Assembly: GCF_057098645.1 (NCBI RefSeq)
Contig: NZ_CM169472.1
Strand: one strand, 5' to 3'
Length of the DNA: 64,000 nt
Shown: positions 1,998-39,736 of the stretch, in pieces
Layout of the letters: each line of letters begins with the position of its first letter
Position numbering within the stretch: position 1 is the first letter of the stretch
Position numbers and translations under genes: made by a program
The notes under the pieces: generated by a model
What the model saw: only the letters and a program-made list of their open reading frames with translations
The model's database searches: none
What the model was told of the DNA's origin: nothing

Positions 1998-3263
1998 GTG
2001 TCAAAGGCAACCGAACAAAACGACAAGCTCAAGCGGGCGATAATTATTTCAGCAGTGCTGCATGTCATCTTATTTGCGGCGCTGATCTGGAGTTCGTTCG
2101 ATGAGAATATAGAAGCTTCAGCTGGAGGCGGCGGTGGTTCGTCCATCGACGCTGTCATGGTTGATTCAGGTGCGGTAGTTGAGCAGTACAAACGCATGCA
2201 AAGCCAGGAATCAAGCGCGAAGCGTTCTGATGAGCAGCGCAAGATGAAGGAACAGCAGGCTGCTGAAGAACTGCGTGAGAAGCAAGCGGCTGAACAGGAA
2301 CGCCTGAAGCAACTTGAGAAAGAGCGGTTAGCTGCTCAGGAACAGAAAAAGCAGGCTGAAGAAGCCGCAAAACAGGCCGAGTTAAAGCAGAAGCAAGCGG
2401 AAGAGGCGGCAGCGAAAGCGGCGGCAGATGCTAAAGCGAAGGCCGAAGCGGATGCTAAAGCTGCGGAAGATGCAGCGAAGAAAGCGGCTGCAGATGCGAA
2501 GAAAAAAGCAGAAGCAGAAGCCGCCAAAGCCGCAGCCGAAGCGCAGAAAAAAGCCGAGGCAGCAGCTGCGGCGCTGAAGAAGAAAGCGGAAGCGGCAGAA
2601 GCAGCTGCAGCTGAAGCAAGAAAGAAAGCGGCAACTGAAGCTGCTGAAAAAGCCAAGGCAGAAGCTGAGAAGAAAGCGGCTGCTGAAAAGGCTGCAGCTG
2701 ATAAGAAAGCGGCAGCAGAGAAAGCTGCAGCCGACAAAAAAGCAGCAGAAAAAGCGGCTGCAGAAAAGGCAGCAGCTGATAAGAAAGCAGCGGCGGAAAA
2801 AGCCGCCGCAGACAAAAAAGCGGCAGCTGCAAAAGCAGCAGCTGAAAAAGCCGCTGCAGCAAAAGCTGCCGCAGAGGCAGATGATATTTTCGGTGAGCTA
2901 AGCTCTGGTAAGAATGCACCGAAAACGGGGGGAGGGGCGAAAGGGAACAATGCTTCGCCTGCCGGGAGTGGTAATACTAAAAACAATGGCGCATCAGGGG
3001 CCGATATCAATAACTATGCCGGGCAGATTAAATCTGCTATTGAAAGTAAGTTCTATGACGCATCGTCCTATGCAGGCAAAACCTGTACGCTGCGCATAAA
3101 ACTGGCACCCGATGGTATGTTACTGGATATCAAACCTGAAGGTGGCGATCCCGCACTTTGTCAAGCTGCGTTGGCAGCAGCTAAACTTGCGAAGATCCCG
3201 AAACCACCAAGCCAGGCAGTATATGAAGTGTTCAAAAACGCGCCATTGGACTTCAAACCGTAA
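1998..3263 (+). CDS. tolA: TolA, with long Ala/Lys/Glu-rich helical domain II
   Basis: 421 aa, MSKATEQNDKLKRAIIISAVLHVILFAALIW..., repetitive (A/K/E)n domain at about 2300-2880, GTG start. Confidence 0.95.
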   Translation: MSKATEQNDKLKRAIIISAVLHVILFAALIWSSFDENIEASAGGGGGSSIDAVMVDSGAVVEQYKRMQSQESSAKRSDEQRKMKEQQAAEELREKQAAEQERLKQLEKERLAAQEQKKQAEEAAKQAELKQKQAEEAAAKAAADAKAKAEADAKAAEDAAKKAAADAKKKAEAEAAKAAAEAQKKAEAAAAALKKKAEAAEAAAAEARKKAATEAAEKAKAEAEKKAAAEKAAADKKAAAEKAAADKKAAEKAAAEKAAADKKAAAEKAAADKKAAAAKAAAEKAAAAKAAAEADDIFGELSSGKNAPKTGGGAKGNNASPAGSGNTKNNGASGADINNYAGQIKSAIESKFYDASSYAGKTCTLRIKLAPDGMLLDIKPEGGDPALCQAALAAAKLAKIPKPPSQAVYEVFKNAPLDFKP

Positions 3264-3395
3264 TCGCGATGTTGACTGTTCCGACGGTCAACATCAGGCA
3301 CCGGTTGCCACGGGGTTCTGGTAGTTTTGTGTATTTTAGTTTGTTAACATTCTGCTAAATTATCGTGGGCCATCGGTCCAGATAAGGGAGATATG

Positions 3396-4688
3396 ATGAA
3401 GCAGGCATTACGAGTAGCATTTGGTTTTCTCATACTGTGGGCATCAGTTCTGCATGCTGAAGTCCGCATTGTGATCGACAGCGGTGTAGATTCCGGTCGT
3501 CCTATTGGAGTTGTTCCTTTCCAGTGGGCGGGCCCTGGTGCGGCACCTGAAGATATTGGCGGCATCGTTGCTGCCGACTTGCGTAACAGCGGTAAATTTA
3601 ATCCGTTAGATCGCGCTCGTCTGCCACAGCAGCCGGGTAGTGCGCAGGAAGTACAACCAGCTGCATGGTCCGCGCTGGGCATTGACGCTGTAGTTGTCGG
3701 TCAGGTCACTCCGAATCCGGATGGTTCTTACAATGTTGCTTATCAACTTGTTGACACTGGCGGCGCACCGGGTACTGTACTTGCTCAGAACTCGTACAAA
3801 GTGAACAAGCAGTGGCTGCGTTATGCTGGTCATACCGCCAGTGATGAAGTGTTTGAAAAACTGACCGGTATTAAAGGTGCGTTCCGTACCCGTATTGCCT
3901 ACGTTGTTCAGACCAACGGCGGTCAGTTCCCGTATGAACTGCGCGTATCTGACTATGACGGTTACAACCAGTTTGTCGTTCACCGTTCACCACAGCCGCT
4001 GATGTCCCCGGCGTGGTCACCAGACGGTTCTAAACTGGCTTATGTGACCTTCGAAAGCGGTCGTTCCGCGCTGGTTATCCAAACGCTGGCAAACGGCGCT
4101 GTACGTCAGGTGGCTTCATTCCCGCGTCACAACGGTGCGCCTGCATTCTCGCCAGACGGCAGCAAACTGGCATTCGCCTTGTCGAAAACCGGTAGCCTGA
4201 ACCTGTACGTAATGGATTTGGCTTCTGGCCAGATCCGCCAGGTGACTGATGGTCGCAGTAACAATACCGAACCGACCTGGTTCCCGGACAGCCAGAACCT
4301 GGCATTTACTTCTGACCAGGCCGGTCGTCCACAGGTTTATAAAGTGAATATCAACGGCGGTGCGCCACAACGTATTACCTGGGAAGGTTCGCAGAACCAG
4401 GATGCGGATGTCAGCAGCGACGGTAAATTTATGGTAATGGTCAGCTCCAACGGTGGGCAGCAGCACATTGCCAAACAAGATCTGGCAACGGGAGGCGTAC
4501 AAGTTCTGTCGTCCACGTTCCTGGATGAAACGCCAAGTCTGGCACCTAACGGCACTATGGTAATCTACAGCTCTTCTCAGGGGATGGGATCCGTGCTGAA
4601 TTTGGTTTCTACAGATGGGCGTTTCAAAGCGCGTCTTCCGGCAACTGATGGACAGGTCAAATTCCCTGCCTGGTCGCCGTATCTGTGA
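3396..4688 (+). CDS. tolB: TolB periplasmic beta-propeller protein
   Basis: [21 protein letters not shown] signal peptide; 430 aa from the second ATG of the ORF. Confidence 0.95.
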
Positions 4689-4698
4689 TAATAATTAA

Positions 4699-5244
<546 letters not shown>

Positions 5245-5253
5245 GAGAATTGC

Positions 5254-6045
5254 ATGAGCAGTAACTTCAGACATCAACTATTGAGTCTGTCGTTACTGGT
5301 TGGTATAGCGGCCCCCTGGGCCGCTTTTGCTCAGGCACCAATCAGTAGTGTCGGCTCAGGCTCGGTCGAAGACCGCGTCACTCAACTTGAGCGTATTTCT
5401 AATGCTCACAGCCAGCTTTTAACCCAACTCCAGCAACAACTCTCTGATAATCAATCCGATATTGATTCCCTGCGTGGTCAGATTCAGGAAAATCAGTATC
5501 AACTGAATCAGGTCGTGGAGCGGCAAAAGCAGATCCTGTTGCAGATCGACAGCCTCAGCAGCGGTGGTGCAGCGGCGCAATCAACCAGCGGTGATCAAAG
5601 CGGTGCGGCGGCATCAACGACGCCGACAGCTGATGCTGGTACTGCGAATGCTGGCGCGCCGGTGAAAAGCGGTGATGCAAACACGGATTACAATGCAGCT
5701 ATTGCGCTGGTGCAGGATAAATCCCGCCAGGATGACGCAATGGTGGCATTTCAGAATTTCATCAAAAATTACCCTGATTCAACTTACCTGCCAAACGCCA
5801 ATTATTGGCTGGGTCAGTTAAACTACAACAAGGGTAAAAAAGATGATGCGGCGTACTATTTTGCTTCGGTAGTGAAAAACTATCCGAAGTCACCAAAGGC
5901 TGCAGATGCGATGTTTAAAGTCGGCGTCATCATGCAGGACAAAGGTGACACCGCAAAAGCGAAAGCCGTATACCAGCAGGTTATCAGTAAATACCCTGGT
6001 ACTGATGGCGCTAAACAGGCGCAAAAACGTCTGAACGCGATGTAA
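5254..6045 (+). CDS. cpoB: CpoB (YbgF), TPR-containing cell-division coordinator
   Basis: 263 aa, signal peptide, coiled-coil then TPR-like C-terminus; last gene of tol-pal. Confidence 0.9.
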   Translation: MSSNFRHQLLSLSLLVGIAAPWAAFAQAPISSVGSGSVEDRVTQLERISNAHSQLLTQLQQQLSDNQSDIDSLRGQIQENQYQLNQVVERQKQILLQIDSLSSGGAAAQSTSGDQSGAAASTTPTADAGTANAGAPVKSGDANTDYNAAIALVQDKSRQDDAMVAFQNFIKNYPDSTYLPNANYWLGQLNYNKGKKDDAAYYFASVVKNYPKSPKAADAMFKVGVIMQDKGDTAKAKAVYQQVISKYPGTDGAKQAQKRLNAM

Positions 6046-27189: not shown

Positions 27190-28623
27190 ATGAATAAGAA
27201 ATCGTTATGGAAGCTAATTCTGATATTAGCGATCCCATGTATTATTGGTTTTATGCCAGCTCCGGCAGGATTAAGCGAACTGGCGTGGGTGCTTTTTGGT
27301 ATTTACCTGGCGGCCATTGTGGGGCTGGTTATCAAGCCTTTCCCGGAACCTGTCGTACTGTTAATTGCTGTTGCTGCCTCCATGGTGGTGGTCGGTAACT
27401 TATCCGACGGTGCGTTTAAGACCACCGCCGTATTAAGCGGTTACTCTTCAGGTACCACCTGGCTGGTGTTCTCGGCGTTTACCTTAAGCGCCGCATTTGT
27501 GACCACCGGCTTAGGTAAACGTATTGCCTATTTGCTGATTGGTAAAATTGGTAGCACTACCCTGGGGCTGGGTTACGTTACGGTATTTCTCGATCTGGTA
27601 CTGGCTCCGGCAACACCGTCTAACACCGCGCGTGCGGGCGGCATTGTGTTACCGATCATCAACAGCGTGGCGGTGGCTTTGGGGTCCGAACCGGAAAAAA
27701 GTCCGCGTCGTGTCGGACATTACCTGATGATGTCCATTTACATGGTCACCAAAACCACCAGCTATATGTTCTTTACCGCAATGGCGGGGAACATTCTGGC
27801 GCTGAAAATGATCAACGACATTCTGCACCTGCAAATTAGCTGGGGGGGATGGGCGCTGGCCGCCGGATTGCCGGGCATCATTATGCTGCTGGTTACTCCG
27901 CTGGTGATTTACACCATGTATCCGCCAGAAATTAAGAAGGTGGATAATAAAACCATCGCCAAAGCGGGCCTTGCCGAACTGGGACCGATGAAAATCCGCG
28001 AAAAAATGCTGCTCGGTGTCTTTGTGCTGGCGCTGCTGGGCTGGATTTTCAGTAAGTCCCTGGGGGTTGATGAATCCACCGTGGCAATCGTTGTTATGGC
28101 GACCATGCTGCTGCTGGGTATCGTTACCTGGGAAGACGTGGTTAAAAATAAAGGCGGCTGGAATACCTTAATCTGGTACGGCGGTATTATCGGCTTAAGC
28201 TCCTTATTATCGAAAGTTAAATTCTTCGAATGGTTAGCTGAAGTCTTTAAAAATAACCTGGCATTTGATGGTCACGGTAACGTTGCTTTCTTCGTTATTA
28301 TTTTCCTCAGCATCATCGTGCGTTATTTCTTCGCTTCCGGTAGTGCCTATATCGTTGCCATGTTGCCGGTATTTGCCATGCTGGCGAACGTCTCCGGCGC
28401 ACCGTTAATGTTAACCGCGCTGGCACTGTTGTTCTCCAACTCCTATGGCGGCATGGTTACTCACTATGGCGGCGCGGCAGGTCCGGTCATCTTTGGCGTG
28501 GGTTACAACGATATTAAATCCTGGTGGTTGGTCGGTGCGGTACTGACGATATTAACCTTCCTGGTGCATATCACCCTCGGCGTGTGGTGGTGGAATATGC
28601 TGATCGGCTGGAACATGCTGTAA
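27190..28623 (+). CDS. ybhI: YbhI, DASS-family di/tricarboxylate transporter
   Basis: 477 aa polytopic membrane protein. Confidence 0.85.
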   Translation: MNKKSLWKLILILAIPCIIGFMPAPAGLSELAWVLFGIYLAAIVGLVIKPFPEPVVLLIAVAASMVVVGNLSDGAFKTTAVLSGYSSGTTWLVFSAFTLSAAFVTTGLGKRIAYLLIGKIGSTTLGLGYVTVFLDLVLAPATPSNTARAGGIVLPIINSVAVALGSEPEKSPRRVGHYLMMSIYMVTKTTSYMFFTAMAGNILALKMINDILHLQISWGGWALAAGLPGIIMLLVTPLVIYTMYPPEIKKVDNKTIAKAGLAELGPMKIREKMLLGVFVLALLGWIFSKSLGVDESTVAIVVMATMLLLGIVTWEDVVKNKGGWNTLIWYGGIIGLSSLLSKVKFFEWLAEVFKNNLAFDGHGNVAFFVIIFLSIIVRYFFASGSAYIVAMLPVFAMLANVSGAPLMLTALALLFSNSYGGMVTHYGGAAGPVIFGVGYNDIKSWWLVGAVLTILTFLVHITLGVWWWNMLIGWNML

Positions 28624-28805
28624 ATATACTCGTCATACTTCAAGTTGCATGTGCTGCGTCTGTGTTCGCTCACCCCAGTCACTTACTTATGTAAGTGACT
28701 GGGGATTCACTCGCTTGTCGCCTTCCTGCAACTCGAATTATTTAGAGTATATCCATTTATTATCTTTCTGCGCACTTCACGGTGCGCAGATATCTGGAGC
28801 ATTTG

Positions 28806-31067
28806 ATGATCAAGTTATCTGAAAAAGGCGTGTTTCTCGCCAGTAATAACGAAATAATTGCCGAAGAACATTTCACCGGCGAAATTAAAAAAGAAGAAGC
28901 CAAAAAAGGCACTATTGCCTGGTCTATTCTCTCTTCGCATAATACGTCCGGAAATATGGATAAACTTAAAATTAAGTTTGATTCATTAGCCTCTCACGAT
29001 ATTACCTTTGTTGGTATTGTACAGACCGCTAAAGCGTCCGGTATGAAACGTTTCCCGCTGCCGTATGTGCTGACCAACTGCCATAACTCACTCTGCGCCG
29101 TCGGTGGCACCATTAACGGTGATGACCATGTTTTTGGTTTATCGGCGGCTCAGCGTTATGGCGGTATTTTTGTGCCTCCGCACATTGCGGTCATCCATCA
29201 ATATATGCGTGAGATGATGGCAGGCGGTGGCAAAATGATCCTCGGGTCAGACAGCCACACCCGTTACGGTGCATTAGGGACAATGGCAGTCGGTGAGGGC
29301 GGCGGTGAGTTGGTAAAACAGCTGCTTAATGACACCTGGGATATCGACTATCCGGGAGTTGTTGCGGTGCATCTGACCGGAAAACCAGCGCCGTATGTGG
29401 GGCCGCAGGATGTGGCGTTGGCTATCATCGGTGCCGTGTTCAAAAACGGCTACGTCAAAAACAAAGTGATGGAATTCGTAGGTCCCGGTGTTGCTGCGCT
29501 CTCTACCGATTTCCGTAACAGCGTTGACGTTATGACCACTGAAACGACCTGTTTAAGTTCTGTCTGGCAAACCGATGAAGAAGTCCATAACTGGCTGGCG
29601 CTGCACGGTCGCGGCCAGGATTACTGCCAGCTTAACCCTCAACCGATGGCGTACTACGATGGCTGCATCAGCGTTGATTTAAGCGCCATCAAACCAATGA
29701 TTGCGCTGCCGTTCCACCCGAGCAACGTGTATGAAATCGACACGCTGAACCAGAACCTGACCGACATTCTACGTGAGATTGAAATTGAGTCCGAGCGCGT
29801 GGCGCACGGTAAAGCCAAACTCTCGCTGCTGGATAAAGTGGAAAATGGCCGCCTGAAAGTGCAGCAGGGGATTATCGCGGGCTGTTCTGGCGGTAACTAC
29901 GAAAACGTTATCGCGGCGGCGAATGCACTGCGCGGTCAATCCTGTGGCAATGACACCTTCTCGCTGGCGGTTTACCCGTCATCACAGCCGGTGTTTATGG
30001 ATTTAGCCAAAAAAGGTGTGGTAGCAGATTTGATTGGCGCAGGCGCAATTATCAGAACCGCGTTCTGTGGCCCATGCTTTGGCGCGGGCGATACGCCAAT
30101 CAACAACGGTTTGAGTATTCGCCACACCACGCGTAACTTCCCGAACCGCGAAGGCTCTAAGCCAGCTAATGGGCAGATGTCAGCGGTGGCGTTGATGGAC
30201 GCTCGTTCTATCGCTGCGACTGCGGCAAACGGTGGCTATTTAACCTCTGCCAGCGAACTCGATTGCTGGGACAACGTGCCGGAGTACGCCTTCGATGTAA
30301 CGCCGTATAAAAATCGCGTCTATCAAGGCTTTGTGAAAGGGGCGACCCAGCAACCGCTGATTTACGGACCGAACATTAAAGACTGGCCGGAATTGGGTGC
30401 GCTGACTGACAATATCGTCCTCAAAGTGTGCTCGAAGATCCTCGACGAAGTGACCACCACCGACGAATTGATTCCTTCCGGTGAAACCTCTTCTTATCGT
30501 TCAAATCCGATTGGTCTGGCGGAGTTTACCCTGTCTCGCCGTGATCCCGGTTATGTTGGCAGAAGTAAAGCGACTGCTGAGCTGGAAAATCAGCGTCTGG
30601 CGGGGAATGTCAGCGAGCTGACAGAGGTGTTTGCGCGCATTAAGCAGATTGCTGGTCAGGAGCATATTGATCCGCTGCAAACTGAAATTGGCAGCATGGT
30701 CTATGCGGTGAAACCAGGCGATGGTTCTGCGCGTGAACAGGCGGCGAGCTGCCAGCGTGTGATTGGCGGTCTGGCGAATATTGCCGAGGAGTACGCGACT
30801 AAACGCTACCGTTCTAACGTCATCAACTGGGGGATGTTACCTTTGCAGATGGCGGAAGTGCCAACCTTTGAAGTGGGGGATTACATTTACATCCCTGGTA
30901 TTAAAGCGGCGCTGGATAATCCGGGTACGACGTTTAAAGGTTATGTGATCCATGAAGATGCGCCGGTAACGGAAATTACGCTCTATATGGAAAGTCTGAC
31001 TGCTGAAGAGCGCGAGATTATCAAGGCGGGTAGTTTGATTAACTTCAATAAAAACCGTCAGATGTAA
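28806..31067 (+). CDS. ybhJ: YbhJ, aconitase-family protein
   Basis: [23 protein letters not shown]..., aconitase-like cysteine ligands (GSDSHT, CGPCFG). Confidence 0.85.
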
Positions 31068-31077
31068 AAAGCACCAT

Positions 31078-31191
<114 letters not shown>

Positions 31192-31207
31192 AAATAGTTA
31201 ATAGCTC

Positions 31208-32491
31208 TTACTTCTTCGCCTCTGCAACCACTTTGCTACCCACGCCGCGGTTATTGTATTCCCACATGCGGTTGTAGTTAGTGTCATTCAGATTGCGCTG
31301 TATTTCGTCGCTATCGTCAACGCTGCCGGTATTACCCGCAAACGGACGATTAGAGCTCACCGCATCGGCCCATGGTTTAGCCGTGTTAAAACCTTCGTTG
31401 ATGGCGCTATCACGGATCACCACCTGACCGTTGGTATTGGCATCAACATCCAGCGAGCGGCCCATTTGTGCCACGCCATCACCGGAAGCATTGAAACGGC
31501 TGTTTACGGCGAGGAAACCGTAGTAAATGTTGGACAGCGTAGCCGGTGCAAACACATACGCTTCTTGCTGAGTACGTGAGTTCACCACGCGGAATTCGGT
31601 GTTATCGAACACCACTGCGCCGCGACCAGAAACGATATCCACATCCCCTTCAATGTAGCTGTTGGTCACCAGCGTACGCGGCTGACGATTCGTTTCCAGA
31701 CGGTTCTGCACACCGCTGTTGGTGACAAAGAAGGTGTTCTGACGACCGAGAATGTTAACGTTGTTAATCTGTACCTGGTCACCGTCAGTACGCAGTGCCA
31801 CCGCCGGATGGTTACCTGCATCTACGCTATCGCCCAGCGTGTTTTCGATGGTCAGATTTTGCAGTTGCAGGCCATTGTTTTGTGACCAGAAGACCGCAGA
31901 ACAGAGAACACCGATACTGTCGCTGCGTTTGCTCTGGCAGCTATCGTACATATACCACGCTGGTTTACCTGGCATATATTTGCCGCGCGGGTTGACGTCG
32001 TGACGCCAGTCGGCAGGGCTCATGCCCCCATCAAGGGAAAGCCCAATCTTCACATCAATCGGTTTTTCACCTGTACCGTACAGAGTAATTCCACCTGGAG
32101 CAGCAGGGACATACACCGTTCCCTGATACTCACCAGGCATCACGGCAATATACTGGCGCTTGTTGGTACGCTTGATAATTGCCGCATCTACCGCCGCCTG
32201 AATCGTGGTATGCGTTACACCTTGAGTACCCGCCGGGCCGACAACAAAGTCAGGTTGCGCAGGCAGGGTTATCGGGGACGGATTCCACGCTGCAGCACCT
32301 GGTGTCAGGGATGCAAAATAGTGTTGCGCATCGAAATTCTGCGCTTCTTTTGCCGACAGAATCGGGCGAGAAGAGGTACCAGGCGCAGTTTGATCAGAAG
32401 GACGTTGATCGGGTGGTGTTGAGCTACAGGCGGTCAGCGTCACGCCAAAAGCCAATGCCAGCGCCAGACGGGAAACTGAAAATGTGTTCAC
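31208..32491 (-). CDS. ybhC: YbhC, outer-membrane lipoprotein with pectinesterase-like beta-helix
   Basis: 427 aa, lipobox LTAC; last host gene before the lambda attachment site. Confidence 0.9.
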   Translation of the reverse strand: MNTFSVSRLALALAFGVTLTACSSTPPDQRPSDQTAPGTSSRPILSAKEAQNFDAQHYFASLTPGAAAWNPSPITLPAQPDFVVGPAGTQGVTHTTIQAAVDAAIIKRTNKRQYIAVMPGEYQGTVYVPAAPGGITLYGTGEKPIDVKIGLSLDGGMSPADWRHDVNPRGKYMPGKPAWYMYDSCQSKRSDSIGVLCSAVFWSQNNGLQLQNLTIENTLGDSVDAGNHPAVALRTDGDQVQINNVNILGRQNTFFVTNSGVQNRLETNRQPRTLVTNSYIEGDVDIVSGRGAVVFDNTEFRVVNSRTQQEAYVFAPATLSNIYYGFLAVNSRFNASGDGVAQMGRSLDVDANTNGQVVIRDSAINEGFNTAKPWADAVSSNRPFAGNTGSVDDSDEIQRNLNDTNYNRMWEYNNRGVGSKVVAEAKK

Positions 32492-32537
32492 AGGTTGCTC
32501 CGGGCTATGAAATAGAAAAATGAATCCGTTGAAGCCT

Positions 32538-32552
32538 GCTTTTTTATACTAA
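32538..32552. other. attL: Lambda attachment core (attL) at the chromosome/prophage junction
   Basis: GCTTTTTTATACTAA core followed by the lambda P-prime arm (AGTTGGCATTATAAAAAAGCATTGCTTATCAATTTGTTGCAACGAACAGGTCACTATCAGTC). Confidence 0.85.
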
Positions 32553-32625
32553 GTTGGCATTATAAAAAAGCATTGCTTATCAATTTGTTGCAACGAACAG
32601 GTCACTATCAGTCAAAATAAAATCA

Positions 32626-33696
32626 TTATTTGATTTCAATTTTGTCCCACTCCCTGCCTCTGTCATCACGATACTGTGATGCCATGGTGTCCGACTTATG
32701 CCCGAGAAGATGTTGAGCAAACTTATCGCTTATCTGCTTCTCATAGAGTCTTGCAGACAAACTGCGCAACTCGTGAAAGGTAGGCGGATCCCCTTCGAAG
32801 GAAAGACCTGATGCTTTTCGTGCGCGCATAAAATACCTTGATACTGTGCCGGATGAAAGCGGTTCACGACGAGTAGATGCAATTATGGTTTCTCCGCCAA
32901 GAATCTCTTTGCATTTATCAAGTGTTTCCTTCATTGATATCCCGAGAGCATCAACATGCAATGTTGTAGGGATGGCAATTTTTACGCCTGTTTTGCTTTG
33001 TTCGACATAAAGATATCCATCTACGATATCAGACCACTTCATTTCGCATAAATCACCAACTCGCTGCCCGGTAACAACAGCCAGTTCCATTGCAAGTCTG
33101 AGCCAACATGGTGATGATTCTGCTGCTTGATAAATTTTCAGGTATTCGTCAGCCGTAAGTCTTGATCTCCTTACCTCTGATTTTGCTGCGCGAGTGGCAG
33201 CGACCGGGTTTGTTGTTATATGGCCTTCAGCTATTGCCTCTCGGAATGCATCGCTCAGTGTTGATCTGATTAACTTGGCTGACGCCGCCTTGCCCTCGTC
33301 TATGTATCCATTGAGCATTGCCGCAATTTCTTTTGTGGTGATGTCTTCAAGTGGAGCATCAGGCAGCCCCCTCCTTATTGCTTTAATTTTGCTCATGTAA
33401 TTTATGAGTGTCTTCTGCTTGATTCCTCTGCTGGCGAGGATTTTTTCGTAGCGATCAAGCCATGAATGTAACGTAACAGAATTATCACTGTTGATTCTCG
33501 CTGTCAGAGGCTTGTGTTTGTGTCCTGAAAATAACTCAATATTGGCCTGTATTGCTTCAGTGATTGCTATCCTCCTGTCTCGGCCTAAACCAAACTCTTT
33601 ACCCGTCCTTGGGTCCCTGTAGCAGTAATATCCATTGTTTCTTATATAAAGGTTAGGGGGTAAATCCCGGCGCTCATGACTTCGCCTTCTTCCCAT
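32626..33696 (-). CDS. int: Lambda integrase
   Basis: 356 aa, MGRRRSHERRDLPPNLYIRNNGYYCYRDPRTGKEFGLGRDRRIAITEAIQ..., matches recalled lambda Int. Confidence 0.97.
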   Translation of the reverse strand: MGRRRSHERRDLPPNLYIRNNGYYCYRDPRTGKEFGLGRDRRIAITEAIQANIELFSGHKHKPLTARINSDNSVTLHSWLDRYEKILASRGIKQKTLINYMSKIKAIRRGLPDAPLEDITTKEIAAMLNGYIDEGKAASAKLIRSTLSDAFREAIAEGHITTNPVAATRAAKSEVRRSRLTADEYLKIYQAAESSPCWLRLAMELAVVTGQRVGDLCEMKWSDIVDGYLYVEQSKTGVKIAIPTTLHVDALGISMKETLDKCKEILGGETIIASTRREPLSSGTVSRYFMRARKASGLSFEGDPPTFHELRSLSARLYEKQISDKFAQHLLGHKSDTMASQYRDDRGREWDKIEIK

Positions 33697-33892
33697 TTCT
33701 GATCCTCTTCAAAAGGCTACCTGTTACTGGTCGATTTAAGTCAACCTTTACCGCTGATTCGTGGAACAGATACTCTCTTCCATCCTTAACCGGAGGAGGG
33801 AATATCCTGCATTCGCGCACCCATCGACGAACTGTTTCAAGGCTTCTTGGGCGTCGCTGGCGTGCGTTCCACTCCTGAAGTGTCAAGTACAT
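33674..33892 (-). CDS. xis: Lambda excisionase
   Basis: 72 aa, MYLTLQEWNARQRRPRSLETVRRWVRECRIFPPPVKDGREYLFHESAVKVDLNRP... Confidence 0.95.
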   Translation of the reverse strand: MYLTLQEWNARQRRPRSLETVRRWVRECRIFPPPVKDGREYLFHESAVKVDLNRPVTGSLLKRIRNGKKAKS

Positions 33893-33918
33893 CGCAAAGT
33901 CTCCGCAATTACACGCAA

Positions 33919-33940
33919 GAAAAAGCCGCCATCAGGCGGC
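33919..33940 (-). terminator. Intrinsic terminator for leftward transcription near orf55/xis
   Basis: On the minus strand gccgcc-tgat-ggcggc followed by TTTTT. Confidence 0.5.
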
Positions 33941-34099
33941 TTGGTGTTCTTTCAGTTCTTCAATTCGAATATTGGTTATGTCTGCATGTGCTATCTGCGC
34001 CCATATCATCCAGTGGTCATAGCAGTCATTGATGTTCTCTGCTTCGATAACTCTGTTGAATGGTTCTCCATTCCATTCACCTGTGACTCGGAAGTGCAT
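33932..34099 (-). CDS. Lambda orf55-like small protein
   Basis: 55-aa ORF MHFRVTGEWNGEPFNRVIEAENINDCYDHWMIWAQIAHADITNIRIEELKEHQAA, below the ORF-track cutoff. Confidence 0.7.
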   Translation of the reverse strand: MHFRVTGEWNGEPFNRVIEAENINDCYDHWMIWAQIAHADITNIRIEELKEHQAA

Positions 34100-34341
34100 T
34101 TATCATCTCCATAAAACAAAACCCGCCGTAGCGAGTTCAGATAAAAGAAATCCTCGTCAGTGCGAGGATGCTGTTCATTGCTGCTATACACTTTTTTGCT
34201 CTCAACGTAAGCGGTAGCTCATTCTGTTGGGTTGGTGCAGTTGCTTTTAGGAAATGCTATTTACCCCTTAAACGTCGGCTGAAAGAGCTAAAATCCATGC
34301 AAAAAATTTACGCAATTTTGTGTATTATTGTGCAGTAAGTA

Positions 34342-34944
34342 ATGAGCTATTTTCTGCGCAAAAAATGGATGGTAAATTTGTCCGGGGCAGGAAAAATTTT
34401 ATGGGCGCTAAACATGAAAAAAGATTCGTATCCTTATTTGATTTGCATGACAGTTTCAGGCCTGATCTTTATTTTCCTTTTCTTCTGGTGGCGGGCAGAT
34501 ATTTACAGGGTCACGTTTCTTAATCAGAGTATATCCCACTATTACATTCTGTTTAGCATGGGAATAGCTTTTCTGTTATCTCTGTTTTGGGTTAAGAAGG
34601 GGATAGTAAAACAAAGCGGCTGGAAGAGTCTGTCAGCATACCTTAAGGTTTATGCAGGGATGTGCATATTTGCTGGATTTTTTCTGATTATACCCCTTAC
34701 AACACTAACTTATTTTTTGCCTGGAGAGACATCGTCTTATGTTGCACCGTATCGGTATACTTCCGGTAGTTCAAAAAGTTGTTCTGGAGCTGAGGTGGAT
34801 GACCCCGATCTACATGAGAATATTCGCATTTGCTATCCGTATGGCAATTATGAGTACGATAATATTATCTATGTTGAAAAGAAAATTAATACATTAGGTG
34901 CGGTAGTAACATATGCACAGACCGCGCGTGATGATACTGAATGA
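34342..34944 (+). CDS. Hypothetical membrane protein (3-4 predicted TM helices plus C-terminal soluble domain); start uncertain
   Basis: 200-aa ORF, visibly AT-rich, opposite strand to the pL operon, occupying the lambda ea8.5/ea22 slot. Confidence 0.5.
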   Translation: MSYFLRKKWMVNLSGAGKILWALNMKKDSYPYLICMTVSGLIFIFLFFWWRADIYRVTFLNQSISHYYILFSMGIAFLLSLFWVKKGIVKQSGWKSLSAYLKVYAGMCIFAGFFLIIPLTTLTYFLPGETSSYVAPYRYTSGSSKSCSGAEVDDPDLHENIRICYPYGNYEYDNIIYVEKKINTLGAVVTYAQTARDDTE

Positions 34945-35154
34945 GATAGTATATAGCGGGCAAGTTTTAGTTAATTTATCGAGGTAATATAATTTACCTC
35001 GACTCGTTTATTCTGGTATTAATATTTCGCTTTACGATCGATTTTTATCTGATGATATCATGCGGTTTTCATATACTGACTTACTGTCTTTTCTCCGTTA
35101 GCGATTTTCTCCTGCTCAGCGATGATTTTATCTTTGGCTTCTAGTTAATTTCGC

Positions 35155-35376
35155 TCACTTCGAACCTCTCTGTTTACTGATAAGTTCCAGATCCTCCTGG
35201 CAACTTGCACAAGTCCGACAACCCTGAACGGCCAGGCGTCTTCGCTCATCTATGGGATCGCCACACTCACAACAATGAGTGGCAGATATAGCCTGGTGGT
35301 TCAGGCGGCGCATTTTTATTGCTGTGTTGCGCTGTAATTCTTCAATTTCTGATGCTGAATCAATGATGTCTGCCAT
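35155..35376 (-). CDS. TraR/DksA-family C4 zinc-finger protein
   Basis: 73 aa, CxxC-x17-CxxC (HCCECGDPIDERRRLAVQGCRTCASCQ). Confidence 0.75.
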   Translation of the reverse strand: MADIIDSASEIEELQRNTAIKMRRLNHQAISATHCCECGDPIDERRRLAVQGCRTCASCQEDLELISKQRGSK

Positions 35377-35474
35377 CTTCCATTAATCCCTGAATTGTTG
35401 GTTAATACGCTTGAGGGTGAATGCGAACAATAAAAAAGGAGCCTGTAGCTCCCTGATGATTTTGCTTTTCATGC

Positions 35475-35690
35475 TCACCGTTCCTTAAAGACGCCGTTTA
35501 ACATGCCGATCGCCAGGCTTAAATGAGTCGGTGTGAATCCCATCAGCGTTACCGTTTCGCGGTGCTTCTTCAGTACGCTACGGCAAATGTCATCGACGTT
35601 TTTATCCGGAAACTGCTGTCTGGCTTTTTTGATTTCAGAATTAGCCTGACGGGCAATACTGCGAAGGGCGTTTTCTTGCTGAGGTGTCAT
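35475..35690 (-). CDS. Hypothetical small protein (71 aa from MTPQQENALRSIARQ...)
   Basis: ORF in the pL operon between the TraR-like gene and orf63. Confidence 0.5.
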   Translation of the reverse strand: MTPQQENALRSIARQANSEIKKARQQFPDKNVDDICRSVLKKHRETVTLMGFTPTHLSLAIGMLNGVFKER

Positions 35691-35766
35691 TGAACAAGTC
35701 CCATGTCGGCAAGCATAAGCACACAGAATATGAAGCCCGCTGCCAGAAAAATGCATTCAGTGGTTG

Positions 35767-35958
35767 TCATACCAGGTCTCTCTCATCTGCTTCTGCTTTC
35801 GCCACCATCATTTCCAGCTTTTGCGAAAGGGATGTGGCTAACGTATGAAATTCTTCGTCTGTTTCTACTGGTATTGGCACAAACCTGACTCCAATTTGAG
35901 CAAGGCTATGTGCCATCTCAATACTCGTTCTTAACTCAACAGGAGATGCTTTGTGCAT
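35767..35958 (-). CDS. Lambda orf63-like protein
   Basis: 63 aa, position upstream of orf60a/exo as in lambda. Confidence 0.55.
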   Translation of the reverse strand: MHKASPVELRTSIEMAHSLAQIGVRFVPIPVETDEEFHTLATSLSQKLEMMVAKAEADERDLV

Positions 35959-36113
35959 ATCGCCTCCCGTTTATTATTTATCTCCTCAGCCAGCCGCTGG
36001 GCTTTCAGCGGATTTCGGATAACAGAAAGGCCGGGAAATACCCAGCCTCGCTTCGTAACGGAGTAGACGAAAGTGATCGTGCCTACGCGGATATTATCGT
36101 GAGGATGCTTCAT
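35931..36113 (-). CDS. Lambda orf60a-like protein
   Basis: 60 aa from [24 protein letters not shown]..., immediately upstream of exo. Confidence 0.55.
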
Positions 36114-36790
36114 CGCCATTGCTCCCCAAATACAAAACCAATTTCAGCCAGTGCCTCGTCCATTTTTTCGATGAACTCCGGCACCATCTCGTCAAAACCC
36201 GCCATGTACTTTTCATCCCGCTCAACCACGACATAATGCAGGCCTTCACGCTTCATACGCGGGTCATAGTTGGCAAAGTACCAGGCATCTTTTCGCGTCA
36301 CCCACATGCTGTACTGCACCTGGGCCATGTAAGCCGACTTTATGGCCTCGAAACCACCGAGCCTGAACTTCATGAAATCCCGGGAGGTAAACGGGCATTT
36401 CAGCTCAAGGCCGTTGCCGTCACTGCATAAACCATCGGGAGAGCAGGCGGTGCGCATACTTTCGTCGCGATAGATGATCGGGGATTCAGTAACATTCACG
36501 CCGGAAGTGAATTCAAACAGGGTTCTGGCGTCGTTCTCGTACTGTTTTCCCCAGGCCAGCGCCTTAGCATTAACTTCCGGAGCCACACCGGTGCAAACCT
36601 CAGCCAGCAGGGTGTGGAAGTAGGACATTTTCATGTCAGGCCACTTCTTTCCTGAGCGGGGCTTTGCTATCACGTTGTGAACTTCTGAAGCGGTGATGAC
36701 GCCGAGCCGTAATTTGTGCCATGCATCATCCCCCTGTTCGACAGCTCTCACGTCGATCCCGGTACGCTGCAGGATAATGTCCGGTGTCAT
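36110..36790 (-). CDS. exo: Lambda exonuclease (Red-alpha)
   Basis: 226 aa, [58 protein letters not shown]... Confidence 0.95.
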
Positions 36791-37572
36791 GCTGCCACCT
36801 TCTGCTCAGTGGCTTTCTGTTTCAGGAATCCAAGAGCTTTCACTGCTTCGGCCTGTGTCAGTTCTGACGATGCGCGAATGTCGCGGCGAAATATCTGGGA
36901 ACAGAGCGGCAATAAGTCGTCATCCCATGTTTTATCCAGGGCGATTAGCAGAGTGTTAATCTCCTGCATGGTTTCATCGTTAACCGGAGTGATGTCGCGT
37001 TCCGGCTGGCGTTCTGCAGTGTATGCAGTATTTTCGACAATGCGCTCGGCTTCATCCTTGTCATAGATACCAGCAAATCCGAAGGCCAGACGGGCACACT
37101 GAATCATGGCTTTATGCCGTAACATCCGTTTAGGATGCGACTGCCACGGCCCCGTGATTTCTCTGCCTTCGCGGGTTTTGAATGGTTCGCGGCGGCATTC
37201 ATCCATCCATTCGGTAACGCAGATCGGATGATTACGGTCCTTGCGGTAAATCCGGCATGTACAGGATTCATTGTCCTGCTCAAAGTCCATGCCATCAAAC
37301 TGCTGGTTTTCATTGATGATGCGGGACCAGCCATCAACGCCCACCACCGGAACGATGCCGTTCTGCTTATCAGGGAAGGCGTAAATTTCTTTCGTCCACG
37401 GATTAAGGCCGTACTGGTTGGCGACGATCAACAATGCGATGAACTGCGCATCGCTGGCATCGCCTTTAAATGCCGTCTGGCGAAGAGTGGTGATCAGTTC
37501 CTGTGGGTCGACAGAATCCATGCCGACACGTTCAGCCAGCTTCCCTGCCAGCGTTGCGAGTGCTGTACTCAT
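36787..37572 (-). CDS. bet: Lambda Bet (Red-beta) single-strand annealing protein
   Basis: 261 aa, [59 protein letters not shown]... Confidence 0.95.
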
Positions 37573-37577
37573 CCGTT

Positions 37578-37994
37578 TTATACCTCTGAATCAATATCAA
37601 CCTGATGGTGAGCAATGGTTTCAACCATGTACCGGATGTGTTCTGCCATGCGCTCCTGAAACTCAACATCGTCATCAAACGCACGGGTAATGGCTTTTTT
37701 GCTGGCCCCGTGGCGTTGCAAATGACCGATGCATAGCGATTCAAACAGGTGCTGGGGCAGGCCTTTTTCCATGTCGTCTGCCAGTTCTGCCTCTTTCTCT
37801 TCACGGGCTATCTGCTGGTAGTGACGCGCCCAGCTCTGAGCCTCAAGACGATCCTGAATGTAATAAGCGTTCATGGCCGAACTCCTGAAATAGCTGTGAA
37901 AATATCGCCCGCGAAATGCCGGGCTGATTAGGAAAACAGGAAAGGGGGTTAGTGAATGCTTTTGCTTGATCTCAGTTTCAGTATTAATATCCAT
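37578..37994 (-). CDS. gam: Lambda Gam (RecBCD inhibitor)
   Basis: 138 aa, [61 protein letters not shown]... Confidence 0.95.
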
Positions 37995-38854: not shown

Positions 38855-39736
38855 TTATGACCACTTTTTGTTTGGGTTTCGTTGGTGAGCGTGGTTTACA
38901 GGATTATTTGATATACCCCATAACTCTGACTCGCTTATCTCTACACGAGAGAAAGACCTGCTTTCTTTCAGTTCTTTTATAAACCTAGAACCTAAGATGA
39001 CATCTATTGTACCAGAAAGTTCTTGTAAAAGATCTTTGTTTTTTCTGAGGAAGAAAATATCTTCTTTATATTTAATTTTTACATAGAATTTATTCTGTAT
39101 TTTTAATATATCAAAGCATGGCAGATATCTATATCCCTCATATTTTCGCCACTGCTTAACAATTATAACATCTTTTTCATTTACTGCATTAATCAGCCCA
39201 AGACCAAGTACAGGTATGAATATTCTATTGTCTGCCGAAAGCGTACAATTATCACCACCAGGCAAATATGTATAAATCATGTCGGAATTTTTATACGCAT
39301 CAACGAATGCACGTAAGAAGCGTACATATTTTTGCCATCCGTTTATACCGAATTTACCATATAAGTATTCTTTATTTGTTAGAAGAAAACTATTTGTATC
39401 AGGATCCTTATCTACAGACCTGTCGATAAGATCTCCAACTACGTTTACAAAGTCAAAGACAGAGTTTAATAAGAACAATTGTCTTTCAGTAGGGCGAATT
39501 TCAATTATGTAGCCAGGATGAAGACGATATTGCATCTGCTTACGAAGTATACCGAACGCTTGGGTCCGAGCATCTGAAAGCAACTTCTTGTCGCCATCGC
39601 CGTGAGCATTGTTTCTAATAAAACTGATATAATTTGCTAATTTTTCAGCCTCTTTTTTGTGTTTTTTTCGCTCTGATGCTGAGTCTATTGGTTTTGGTAT
39701 GGACTTGTAATCAATCTTCTTCATTACGTACCTCAT
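38855..39736 (-). CDS. Uncharacterised 293-aa protein translationally coupled to N (lambda ral/sieB slot)
   Basis: Start ATG overlaps the N stop (ATGA), visibly AT-rich, lambda ral/sieB absent at this position; no motif I can assign. Confidence 0.6.
   Translation of the reverse strand: MRYVMKKIDYKSIPKPIDSASERKKHKKEAEKLANYISFIRNNAHGDGDKKLLSDARTQAFGILRKQMQYRLHPGYIIEIRPTERQLFLLNSVFDFVNVVGDLIDRSVDKDPDTNSFLLTNKEYLYGKFGINGWQKYVRFLRAFVDAYKNSDMIYTYLPGGDNCTLSADNRIFIPVLGLGLINAVNEKDVIIVKQWRKYEGYRYLPCFDILKIQNKFYVKIKYKEDIFFLRKNKDLLQELSGTIDVILGSRFIKELKESRSFSRVEISESELWGISNNPVNHAHQRNPNKKWS

Follow-up and report, generated by a model that had tools for sequence, protein, structure and literature searches.

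The closest described counterparts of the gene examined here are the morons of Hendrix and colleagues, such as gene 15 of HK97 and lom and bor of lambda, and the sieA gene of P22, which encodes a membrane protein, stands singly, has a promoter of its own and opposes its flanking operon. A further point of comparison is the gpA-gpQ locus of P2-like prophages, bounded by a replication gene (gpA) and a portal gene (gpQ) and described as the old/tin anti-phage hotspot (PMC9122126; bioRxiv 10.1101/2024.10.15.618418). The gene lies in a window of 64,000 nucleotides, the whole stretch of DNA that was analysed (contig NZ_CM169472.1, NCBI RefSeq assembly GCF_057098645.1). The prophage around it is lambdoid, of the phage 434 type, and occupies the lambda attachment site beside ybhC, with the gene in its exo-xis region. 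The gene resembles the morons in being an extra gene, inserted between blocks that are adjacent in lambda, and in having a base composition unlike that of its flanks. As predicted from sequence, it also shares with them promoter-like and terminator-like elements and a position and orientation that would permit expression from a repressed prophage. The protein itself is unrelated to the 62-residue gp15 of HK97, to which no profile similarity was detected (hhalign probability 1.1%). Like SieA, it is a small inner-membrane protein of several helices, the product of a lone temperate-phage gene that has a promoter of its own (here predicted) and is directed against the neighbouring operon. It differs from SieA in genome position, and homology between the two was not detectable at the profile level (hhalign probability 0.3%). 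Read from its sequence, SieA has its soluble segment placed between helices and lacks a beta-domain at the C-terminus, unlike the protein encoded in the window. Homologues of the gene at 51-78% identity occupy exactly the locus of the P2 hotspot cargo (old, tin and the systems of Rousset et al. 2022, PMC9122126), whereas the copy in the window belongs to a lambdoid phage. Ea22 and Ea8.5 of lambda share its slot, between ORF55 and orf73, but are encoded on the opposite strand, are unrelated in sequence and are soluble proteins; no homology to them was found, the sole PHROG match being to PHROG 1416 and the Pfam Ead_Ea22 family giving none. The features of the locus are listed below in window coordinates.

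33932 to 34099, minus strand: ORF55, the left neighbour, a lambdap35 homologue (phrog_676; annotated in M60848 and in lambda).
34150 to 34169, minus strand: t-L4 terminator hairpin of the leftward operon, at the left edge of the cassette (1991 annotation of phage 434, M60848; terminator scan of both strands).
34168 to 34338, plus strand: 56-codon ORF, labelled 'putative membrane protein' in the phage 434 annotation.
34170 to 35142, no strand assigned: cargo cassette of 973 bp and 38% GC, replacing lambda 29356-30379 (ea8.5 and ea22), as defined by blastn against lambda and by GC content.
34308 to 34335, plus strand: three TTGTGCA-like heptamers with 10-bp spacing, 5' of the promoter-like motif and conserved in diverged copies.
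34342 to 34413, plus strand: 24-codon N-terminal extension of the longest ORF, overlapping the promoter-like region and absent from homologues outside the 434-type allele.
34370 to 34378, plus strand: extended -10 promoter-like motif TGGTAAATT, 44 bp 5' of ATG 34414 (upstream alignment).
34414 to 34944, plus strand: likely true CDS for a 176-residue inner-membrane protein, with stop codon (homologue starts, dN/dS, AlphaFold2 model).
34429 to 34719, plus strand: segment encoding three transmembrane helices (hydropathy, charge counts, AlphaFold2 model).
34720 to 34941, plus strand: segment encoding the C-terminal domain, residues 103-176, a five-stranded beta-barrel of about 75 residues.
34979 to 35002, plus strand: terminator-like hairpin with a 9-bp stem, then CUCGUUUAUU, 35 bp 3' of the stop codon (terminator scan).
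35058 to 35158, minus strand: vestige of an ea22-type gene, GTG-SEIN-stop followed by a frameshifted LEAKDKIIAEQEKIA... remnant (minus-strand translation; alignment to the Ead_Ea22 gene flanking a P2-like copy).
35155 to 35376, minus strand: orf73, the right neighbour, a TraR/DksA-family zinc-finger protein of the exo-xis region (phrog_54, E = 2e-25; PGAP name); lambda Orf73 is described in PMC9239242.

The edges of the cassette are sharp. Window positions 32538-34169 correspond to lambda 27724-29355 at 97.9% identity and positions 35143-37762 to lambda 30380-33000 at 97.4% identity (blastn), and homology to lambda breaks at 34169/34170 and at 35142/35143. An earlier note on this DNA had reported that ea8.5 and ea22 are missing, and the cassette stands exactly in their place. 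The AT-richness that it described for the ORF and its flanks is borne out by a GC content of 38.0% across 34170-35142, vs 45.8% for int-xis-ORF55 and 49.7% for orf73-exo. It was also right about strand, since the neighbours int, xis, ORF55, orf73, orf61-like, orf63, orf60a, exo, bet and gam are all on the minus strand. The ea22 vestige at the right edge spans about 100 bp; lambda Ea22 begins VSEIN. At the left edge, the 56-codon ORF gave no match in PHROG, PADLOC or NCBIfam and is not called by PGAP, and we consider that it is probably not a gene; only its last ~60-90 bp lie within DNA common to the P2-like cassette. The proposal of a cargo gene with its own transcription signals in the ea8.5/ea22 slot, that is, a moron, is well supported at the level of sequence by the sharp boundaries, the GC contrast, the conserved promoter-like motif and terminator-like hairpin (both predictions) and the recurrence of the cassette in an unrelated phage family.

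The 200-codon plus-strand ORF on which that proposal was built is present at 34342-34944. The translated product is most likely 176 residues long rather than 200, because every homologue starts at the residue equivalent to M25 of the 200-residue form (ATG 34414), because the closest diverged copy, a 78%-identical allele, carries an in-frame TAA four codons 5' of the conserved start, and because the conserved promoter-like motif falls 3' of ATG 34342. We thus rejected the start at 34342, and codons 34342-34413 are probably not translated. In the window's allele, ATG 34414 is preceded by a weak Shine-Dalgarno sequence. Annotations disagree: PGAP gives the 200-residue form, the phage 434 annotation begins at TTG 34378, the 1991 phage 434 record (M60848) called another reading frame, and the stated lengths are 200, 188, 176, 112 and 90 residues. 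Such disagreement over start, length and frame is what might be expected of a spurious ORF in AT-rich spacer DNA. This reading is refuted by the conservation of the family down to 23% identity with invariant cysteines, by a highly confident AlphaFold2 model and by a dN/dS of 0.08-0.15, about 0.1, in allele pairs with measurable dS, and we give it practically no credence. By the same estimate of dN/dS, the gene is under purifying selection. The common 112- and 90-residue versions, which might be taken for truncated genes, are gene-calling artefacts over an intact 176-codon ORF, and full-length copies are intact in 51 of 51 cases on viral contigs. Absence from related prophages had been named in the earlier note as the sign of a spurious ORF; the ORF is intact in related phages, and homologues at 23-78% identity with the same start and the same architecture are found in many Enterobacterales. 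Judged by these comparisons, the ORF is a genuine gene, as yet uncharacterised, whose product is a small inner-membrane protein.

When seven upstream regions, taken from lambdoid and P2-like copies, were aligned, the TG, TAA and TT positions of the promoter-like motif proved invariant. The pattern TGnTAAnTT lies at -44 to -48 in all examined phage-borne copies and in one Cedecea chromosomal copy. A simple sigma-70 scan of the window did not list this extended -10 motif, which is a prediction. The TTGTGCA-like heptamers are retained upstream of copies down to 51% protein identity, and the spaced pair TTGTG-N5-TTGTG occurs once in the window against an expectation of 0.21. Beyond the stop codon, the hairpin at 34979-35002 is the sole element in the centroid fold, is followed by a U-rich tract, and lies within the stretch common to the window and the P2-like copy.

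The claim that the protein has three to four hydrophobic helices holds for three; neither hydropathy nor the AlphaFold2 model contains a fourth. The soluble C-terminal domain that was said to follow them was confirmed by hydropathy and charge counts, and is acidic (6 K/R vs 12 D/E). The three hydrophobic segments comprise residues 6-28, 40-60 and 77-102 of the 176-residue form. The AlphaFold2 model (pLDDT 93.6, pTM 0.81) places helices at residues 6-29, 38-61 and 71-101, with a short strand at 34-36. TM1 is followed by a short conserved loop, IYRVTFL, whose strand sits against the C-terminal sheet in the model, and the TM2-TM3 loop is lysine-rich, with five K/R and no D/E. The N-terminus is predicted to be cytoplasmic and the C-terminal beta-barrel periplasmic. 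Exactly two cysteines are invariant in the family, C123 and C140, both in the C-terminal domain, and a single disulfide bond probably stabilises the barrel.

Database searches placed the protein in a family without a functional description. PHROG 1416 matched residues 113-200 of the 200-residue ORF with E = 2.1e-50; its 90-position profile covers the C-terminal part only, and it carries no function label. Pfam, NCBIfam and PADLOC gave no matches for the protein, and a sequence search of the PDB returned nothing. Foldseek hits against AFDB50 were almost exclusively uncharacterised relatives. Literature queries with locus tags, accession numbers and phage names turned up no publication that deals with the gene.

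Phages 434, 2B8 and mEp332 carry the 434-type cassette with no or hardly any differences in DNA sequence. Of 5426 complete E. coli genomes, 915 have the 434-type allele, roughly one genome in six; O157:H7, O55:H7 and O145:H28 strains are among them. P2-like prophages of E. coli carry a copy at 76% DNA identity over approximately 34246-35144, upstream and downstream flanks included, and next to this copy lies an Ea22-like gene to which the window's ea22 vestige corresponds. All 67 of the 67 viral-contig loci fall into two slots, either left of orf73-exo in lambdoid phages or in the gpQ-gpA interval of P2-like phages; the latter placement was also seen in E. coli assemblies and, for diverged protein homologues, in those of Salmonella and Klebsiella. 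As compared at the DNA level, the cassette is mobile between the lambdoid and P2-like families. The systems cloned in PMC9122126 do not include the gene, and it is missing from the relevant rows of Table S5. The distant homologues are single chromosomal genes across Enterobacterales. They occur, at 38-55% identity, in Enterobacter, Klebsiella, Cedecea, Citrobacter, Pseudescherichia and Serratia and on a Pantoea megaplasmid, in each case in surroundings free of phage genes. The Enterobacter homologue occupies one stable locus in several species, outside any phage.

We tentatively propose, with somewhat less than even confidence, that the locus is a self-contained single-gene moron cassette encoding a periplasm-facing superinfection-exclusion membrane protein that is expressed in the lysogen. 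Because the gene opposes the leftward early (pL) operon and has its own predicted extended -10 promoter and terminator, its product would be made while pL is repressed, that is, in the lysogen; during lytic growth the gene would be read antisense. The short conserved first loop and the C-terminal barrel would face the periplasm, and the prophage would in this way alter the cell envelope so that other phages fail to deliver their genomes. Such a block would act at a periplasmic or inner-membrane step, as superinfection exclusion, with the periplasmic domain binding tail-tip or ejection proteins of the incoming phage, or a host membrane component that they use. A defence or exclusion function is plausible, and the gene is a candidate for one because the same insert occupies a known anti-phage hotspot of unrelated P2-like prophages; its gpA-gpQ position strengthens this guess, and the stable chromosomal homologues outside phages weaken it. 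The lambdoid slot normally carries developmental genes (ea22, ea8.5) rather than defence genes, which counts against exclusion. The chromosomal and megaplasmid homologues fit a physiological role in the envelope at least as well as they fit defence.

Such a role would make the protein an envelope conversion or fitness factor unrelated to phages and carried because it benefits the lysogen, through tolerance of an envelope stress, modulation of a transporter or of a signalling protein, or immunity against a bacteriocin, or against a contact-dependent toxin, that acts at the inner membrane or in the periplasm. We regard this as rather doubtful, though it draws support from the 38-55% homologues being ordinary chromosomal or megaplasmid genes, from the Enterobacter locus common to several species and from the lack of a defence-family signature in PADLOC. 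Membrane-anchored periplasmic immunity proteins with a disulfide also exist, colicin M immunity being an example. However, the phage-borne clade is limited to two accessory slots, one of them the documented anti-phage hotspot, and no bacteriocin or toxin gene recurs as a neighbour in the contexts examined. Nor do the chromosomal neighbours share a theme, adjacency to PTS genes being confined to two independent loci. The position in the exo-xis region invites yet another reading, a role in phage development in place of ea22/ea8.5, in the lysis-lysogeny decision or in induction, perhaps switched on by CII as lysogeny is established. Genes of this region affect lysogenisation and induction (PMC3824215, PMC4195576), and the phage 434 annotation OL657226 labels TTGT-N6-TTGT at 34318-34331 as a CII site. 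A CII-activated promoter was nonetheless rejected: the looser CII-type pattern TTGY-N6-TTGY is at chance frequency (15 in the window against 16.4 expected), and the repeats persist at the P2-like copies, where no CII homologue was seen in the flanks examined. For a CII-type promoter, moreover, the site lies some 40 bp too far from the conserved -10 motif. The gene also runs opposite to the exo-xis operon, and P2-like prophages and chromosomes harbour it just as readily. We consider a developmental role improbable.

An abortive-infection membrane effector that damages or depolarises the inner membrane on infection, in the manner of RexB or of Cap15, a two-helix plus beta-barrel effector of CBASS, seems to us slightly less probable again. 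The protein shares with Cap15/S-2TMbeta an arrangement in which a small beta-rich domain follows transmembrane helices at the N-terminus. One weak Foldseek neighbour in AFDB50 is annotated 'SMODS-associating 2TM beta-strand rich effector' (E = 1.6e-7, TM-score 0.51, 18% identity), and transmembrane proteins of known systems are thought to be suicide effectors (PMC9122126). Unlike Cap15, the protein has three helices rather than two, none of 40 family members matched Pfam S-2TMbeta, and PADLOC gave no match. The gene stands singly, without a recurrent sensor or cyclase partner in any context, and no CD-NTase (cyclase) gene adjoined family members in the contexts read. Furthermore, the beta-domain, with its conserved cysteine pair, is predicted to be periplasmic and would therefore be beyond the reach of a cytoplasmic signal.

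Returning to exclusion, a broader version of the proposal would make these proteins a new family of single-protein, envelope-level anti-phage factors, swapped as a ready-made cassette by lambdoid siphoviruses and P2-like myoviruses. The barrel would intercept tail-tip or ejection proteins or mask an inner-membrane conduit, and the TTGTGCA repeats would tie expression to a host regulator; we think this extension unlikely on balance. Although the allele is carried by about one in six complete E. coli genomes and by phage 434, a classical laboratory phage, it has no assigned function and no Pfam family, and its annotation is inconsistent. Having passed between the exo-xis region of lambdoid phages and the anti-phage hotspot of P2, the cassette offers a cheap and well-defined candidate for exclusion or defence: a single gene in about 1 kb, native promoter included. 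If exclusion is true, a new periplasm-facing mechanism would join the short list of understood exclusion proteins, with relevance to phage therapy and to the typing of pathogenic E. coli and Salmonella. If it is false, the stable chromosomal homologues would point to an uncharacterised envelope function in Enterobacterales.

The chromosomal homologues have no common theme in their surroundings. A link to PTS sugar permeases, suggested by ptsG in Serratia and a bglF-like neighbour in Klebsiella, did not recur at other loci and was rejected. A plasmid bacteriocin-immunity context was likewise rejected: the plasmid hits comprise Pantoea megaplasmids and a fragment of a Serratia chromosome that was mis-assigned, and toxin genes are absent nearby. 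At three loci the homologues are adjoined by LysR regulators, in three different orientations.

E. coli chromosomal DNA makes up the left part of the window, with an aconitase-family gene followed by ybhC (31208-32491), and a lambdoid prophage begins at 32538, inserted at the lambda attachment site. The prophage genes run in the order int (32626-33696), xis, ORF55, the gene studied here, orf73, an orf61-like ORF, orf63, orf60a, exo, bet and gam. Phage 434 (OL657226) matches the window at 99.9% DNA identity from 33920 until at least 39150. The blastn match to lambda (97.9% identity) ends at 34169 (lambda 29355) and restarts at 35143 (lambda 30380) with 97.4% identity. Thus, a 973-bp cassette (34170-35142) exactly replaces the lambda ea8.5 and ea22 segment, bearing out the loss of both genes proposed in an earlier note on this DNA. 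The t-L4 terminator hairpin, annotated in the 1991 phage 434 record, abuts the left breakpoint. A remnant of ea22 marks the right breakpoint, beside orf73:

35058-35158, minus strand: ea22 remnant, GTG-SEIN-stop (the first five ea22 codons, VSEIN), then a frameshifted LEAKDKIIAEQEKIA... coiled-coil fragment
35155-35376, minus strand: orf73, encoding a 73-aa TraR/DksA-type zinc-finger protein

Lambda Orf73 is known in the literature (PMC9239242). In the lambda RefSeq feature table (NC_001416), ea22 and orf61 have no gene listed between them, although lambda and the window align at 97% across orf73. A 431-bp segment with ORF114, located between xis and ORF55 in phage 434 (3340-3770), is missing from the window (33920-33929) and from lambda.

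The earlier note described the gene as an AT-rich plus-strand ORF of 200 codons (34342-34944), and this description is correct. Every neighbour lies on the minus strand, and the GC content is 38.8% in the coding part and 38.0% in the cassette, compared with 45.8% in int-xis-ORF55 and 49.7% in orf73-exo. The search of 5.8 billion proteins returned 74 relatives, and 53 were recovered from 1.84 billion cluster representatives, which were searched exhaustively. Outside the near-identical E. coli allele, full-length relatives comprise 166-189 aa, and their first residue corresponds to M25 of the 200-aa ORF; four codons 5' of that methionine, the closest diverged allele (78% protein identity) has an in-frame TAA. 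These features favour a shorter product than the 200 aa originally given, most likely 176 aa from the ATG at 34414. The alternative that the ORF is spurious, and lacks conservation in related prophages, is refuted: the reading frame is intact in all 51 full-length copies from viral contigs, and dN/dS is 0.08-0.15 among alleles with measurable synonymous divergence (dN 0.125 and dS 1.21 between the window and the E. coli P2-like allele). Constraint is weaker among near-identical alleles, with 13 non-synonymous versus 7 synonymous polymorphic codons. Databases widely list the protein at "112 aa" or "90 aa", but these lengths are artefacts of gene calling, and the underlying 176-codon ORF is intact; the same artefacts explain why phrog_1416 is limited to the last 88 residues. 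As early as 1991, the phage 434 record (M60848, 2550-2616; window 34401-34467, plus strand) showed a rightward "ORF-22+" past t-L4, although its reading frame is not that of the conserved gene.

The 176-aa protein contains three hydrophobic segments (residues 6-28, 40-60 and 77-102). Of the three to four hydrophobic helices and soluble C-terminal domain originally described, three helices and the domain were recovered and a fourth helix was not. The loop between segments 2 and 3 has five Lys/Arg and no acidic residue, whereas the C-terminal 74 residues have six Lys/Arg and twelve Asp/Glu. By the positive-inside rule, the N-terminus and second loop are predicted to be cytoplasmic, and the first loop and C-terminal domain periplasmic. 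Two cysteines and no more, C123 and C140, are invariant in 40 sequences, down to 23% identity, which fits a predicted periplasmic disulfide bond. AlphaFold2 with the family alignment gave a confident model (pLDDT 93.6, pTM 0.81), in which three long helices precede a five-stranded beta-domain at the C-terminus and the conserved first loop (IYRVTFL) includes a short strand; the beta-domain was modelled with equal confidence alone (pLDDT 91.4). Neither the protein nor any of 40 family members matched a Pfam family, and the protein had no match in NCBIfam, PADLOC or the PDB sequences. Foldseek searches of AFDB50 recovered the family and, beyond it, weakly matching uncharacterised proteins of ~190 aa; one of the weak matches bears the annotation SMODS-associated 2TM beta-strand-rich effector (E = 1.6e-7, TM-score 0.51). 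Existing annotations, "putative membrane protein" or "hypothetical", cover an ORF visible since phage 434 was sequenced, and we found no study of the gene in the searchable literature.

We aligned the upstream region of the window with those of two E. coli and four Salmonella copies from P2-like prophages, and examined the flanking signals:

34308-34335, plus strand: three TTGTGCA-like heptamers with 10-bp spacing, also conserved in front of phage-borne copies with as little as 51% protein identity
34370-34378, plus strand: promoter-like motif TG-n-TAA-n-TT (TGGTAAATT), invariant across the alignment
34979-35002, 3' of the stop codon: predicted terminator-like hairpin (9-bp stem and U-rich tract), the sole stable element downstream

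TG-n-TAA-n-TT lies 44-48 bp 5' of the start codon in all phage-borne copies examined and in a Cedecea chromosomal copy. It reads as a predicted extended -10 promoter, which would place the transcription start near 34385, downstream of ATG 34342, ATG 34369 and TTG 34378. The motif was not among the sites listed by a generic promoter scan. No known regulator could be assigned to the heptamers. The phage 434 annotation labels them as a CII site, a reading we rejected: TTGY-N6-TTGY occurs 15 times in the window versus 16.4 expected, and the repeats also precede the P2-like copies.

Phages 434, 2B8 and mEp332 match the 1-kb stretch around the gene at 98.8-100% identity and are the only carriers of the protein among 50,697 deposited phage genomes. 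Of 5426 complete E. coli genomes, 915 carry this stretch, in every case on the chromosome; O157:H7, O55:H7 and O145:H28 strains are among them. Seventy-seven complete E. coli genomes have the P2-type allele (at least 95% identity). Scanning viral contigs gave 67 loci. Thirteen are P2-like, with gpA and/or the portal gene, and one is a short contig-end fragment without a marker; in nearly all others the gene lies directly left of orf73-exo. The left-hand module of these loci varies: some have lambda int-xis-ORF55, some an integrase with 75% identity, and some neither. At 98-99% protein identity, the gene also occurs together with orf73 and exo on a 3.5-kb contig assigned to "Candidatus Nanosynbacter" (JARKOR010000073.1), almost certainly a binning contaminant.

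The E. coli P2-like copy occupies the interval bounded by gpQ (portal) and gpA (replication), adjoining StbA/StbB genes. It shows 76% DNA identity to window 34277-35051, spanning the upstream region, gene and hairpin, with additional short matches at 34246-34281 and 35101-35144. Next to it is an Ead_Ea22-family gene, one segment of which is homologous to the frameshifted coiled-coil fragment of the ea22 remnant in the window. This common flank indicates that a single cassette moved between a lambdoid exo-xis region and the P2 locus, the remnant marking a past exchange. The gpQ-gpA interval also holds homologues from Salmonella (58-70% identity) and one from Klebsiella (56%). In P2 it contains old and tin and is a hotspot for anti-phage systems (PMC9122126), as confirmed by a 2024 preprint (bioRxiv 10.1101/2024.10.15.618418). 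In the assemblies examined here, the family gene was located in the P2 hotspot locus type surveyed in PMC9122126 Table S5; the relevant rows of that table lack it, and it was apparently missed by the underlying annotation. Two other genes share the Klebsiella hotspot with the homologue, possibly as a separate defence system:

Klebsiella locus 3251-5623, minus strand: 790-aa protein with a weak AAA_16 match
Klebsiella locus 2281-3120, minus strand: 279-aa protein of unassigned family

Relatives outside phages (38-55% identity) stand as single genes on chromosomes, and their surroundings differ. One locus, adjoining a GGDEF gene, is common to several Enterobacter species; a Klebsiella homologue is flanked by a bgl-type PTS operon and a LysR gene; others occur in Cedecea, in Citrobacter adjoining rstB-tus-fumC, and in a YmgB/YqeJ region. 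A further homologue is on a Pantoea agglomerans megaplasmid, and one in Serratia marcescens lies 235 bp downstream of ptsG on "plasmid" pE28_003 (NZ_CP042515.1). The latter record, linear and 67 kb, carries the core chromosomal genes pabC, mltG, tmk, holB, ptsG, mntR and lpoB, and looks like a mis-assigned chromosome fragment. No partner gene recurred across the contexts read, implying that the protein acts alone or with core host components.

Taken together, the cassette is a mobile single-gene unit encoding a conserved inner-membrane protein with a predicted periplasm-facing domain, in an orientation that permits transcription while the early-left operon is silent. We tentatively favour superinfection exclusion at the genome-entry step as its most probable function, at somewhat below an even chance. 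The domain is predicted to face the compartment crossed by incoming tails, two unrelated temperate phage types carry the gene, a proven anti-phage hotspot is one of the two slots it occupies, and exclusion functions usually take the form of a lone membrane protein expressed from its own promoter, as with P22 sieA. However, caution is needed because there is no homology to known exclusion proteins; profile comparison with P22 SieA and HK97 gp15 revealed no relationship. Caution also follows from the chromosomal relatives, which suggest that its older role was physiological. An envelope or immunity function unconnected with phages is a possible, if less probable, reading.

A part in phage development seems unlikely, and an abortive-infection membrane effector slightly more so. 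The gene is best described as a prophage moron for an envelope protein, not previously characterised. Nothing about it is surprising so far; it is very common in pathogenic E. coli, part of a classical phage, present in two accessory hotspots and easy to test. The prophage may carry another candidate cargo or exclusion gene, a 293-codon ORF at 38855-39736 (minus strand) in very AT-rich DNA (30-39% GC), annotated in phage 434 as "Nun C-terminal peptide-containing protein" (similar to HK022 Nun).
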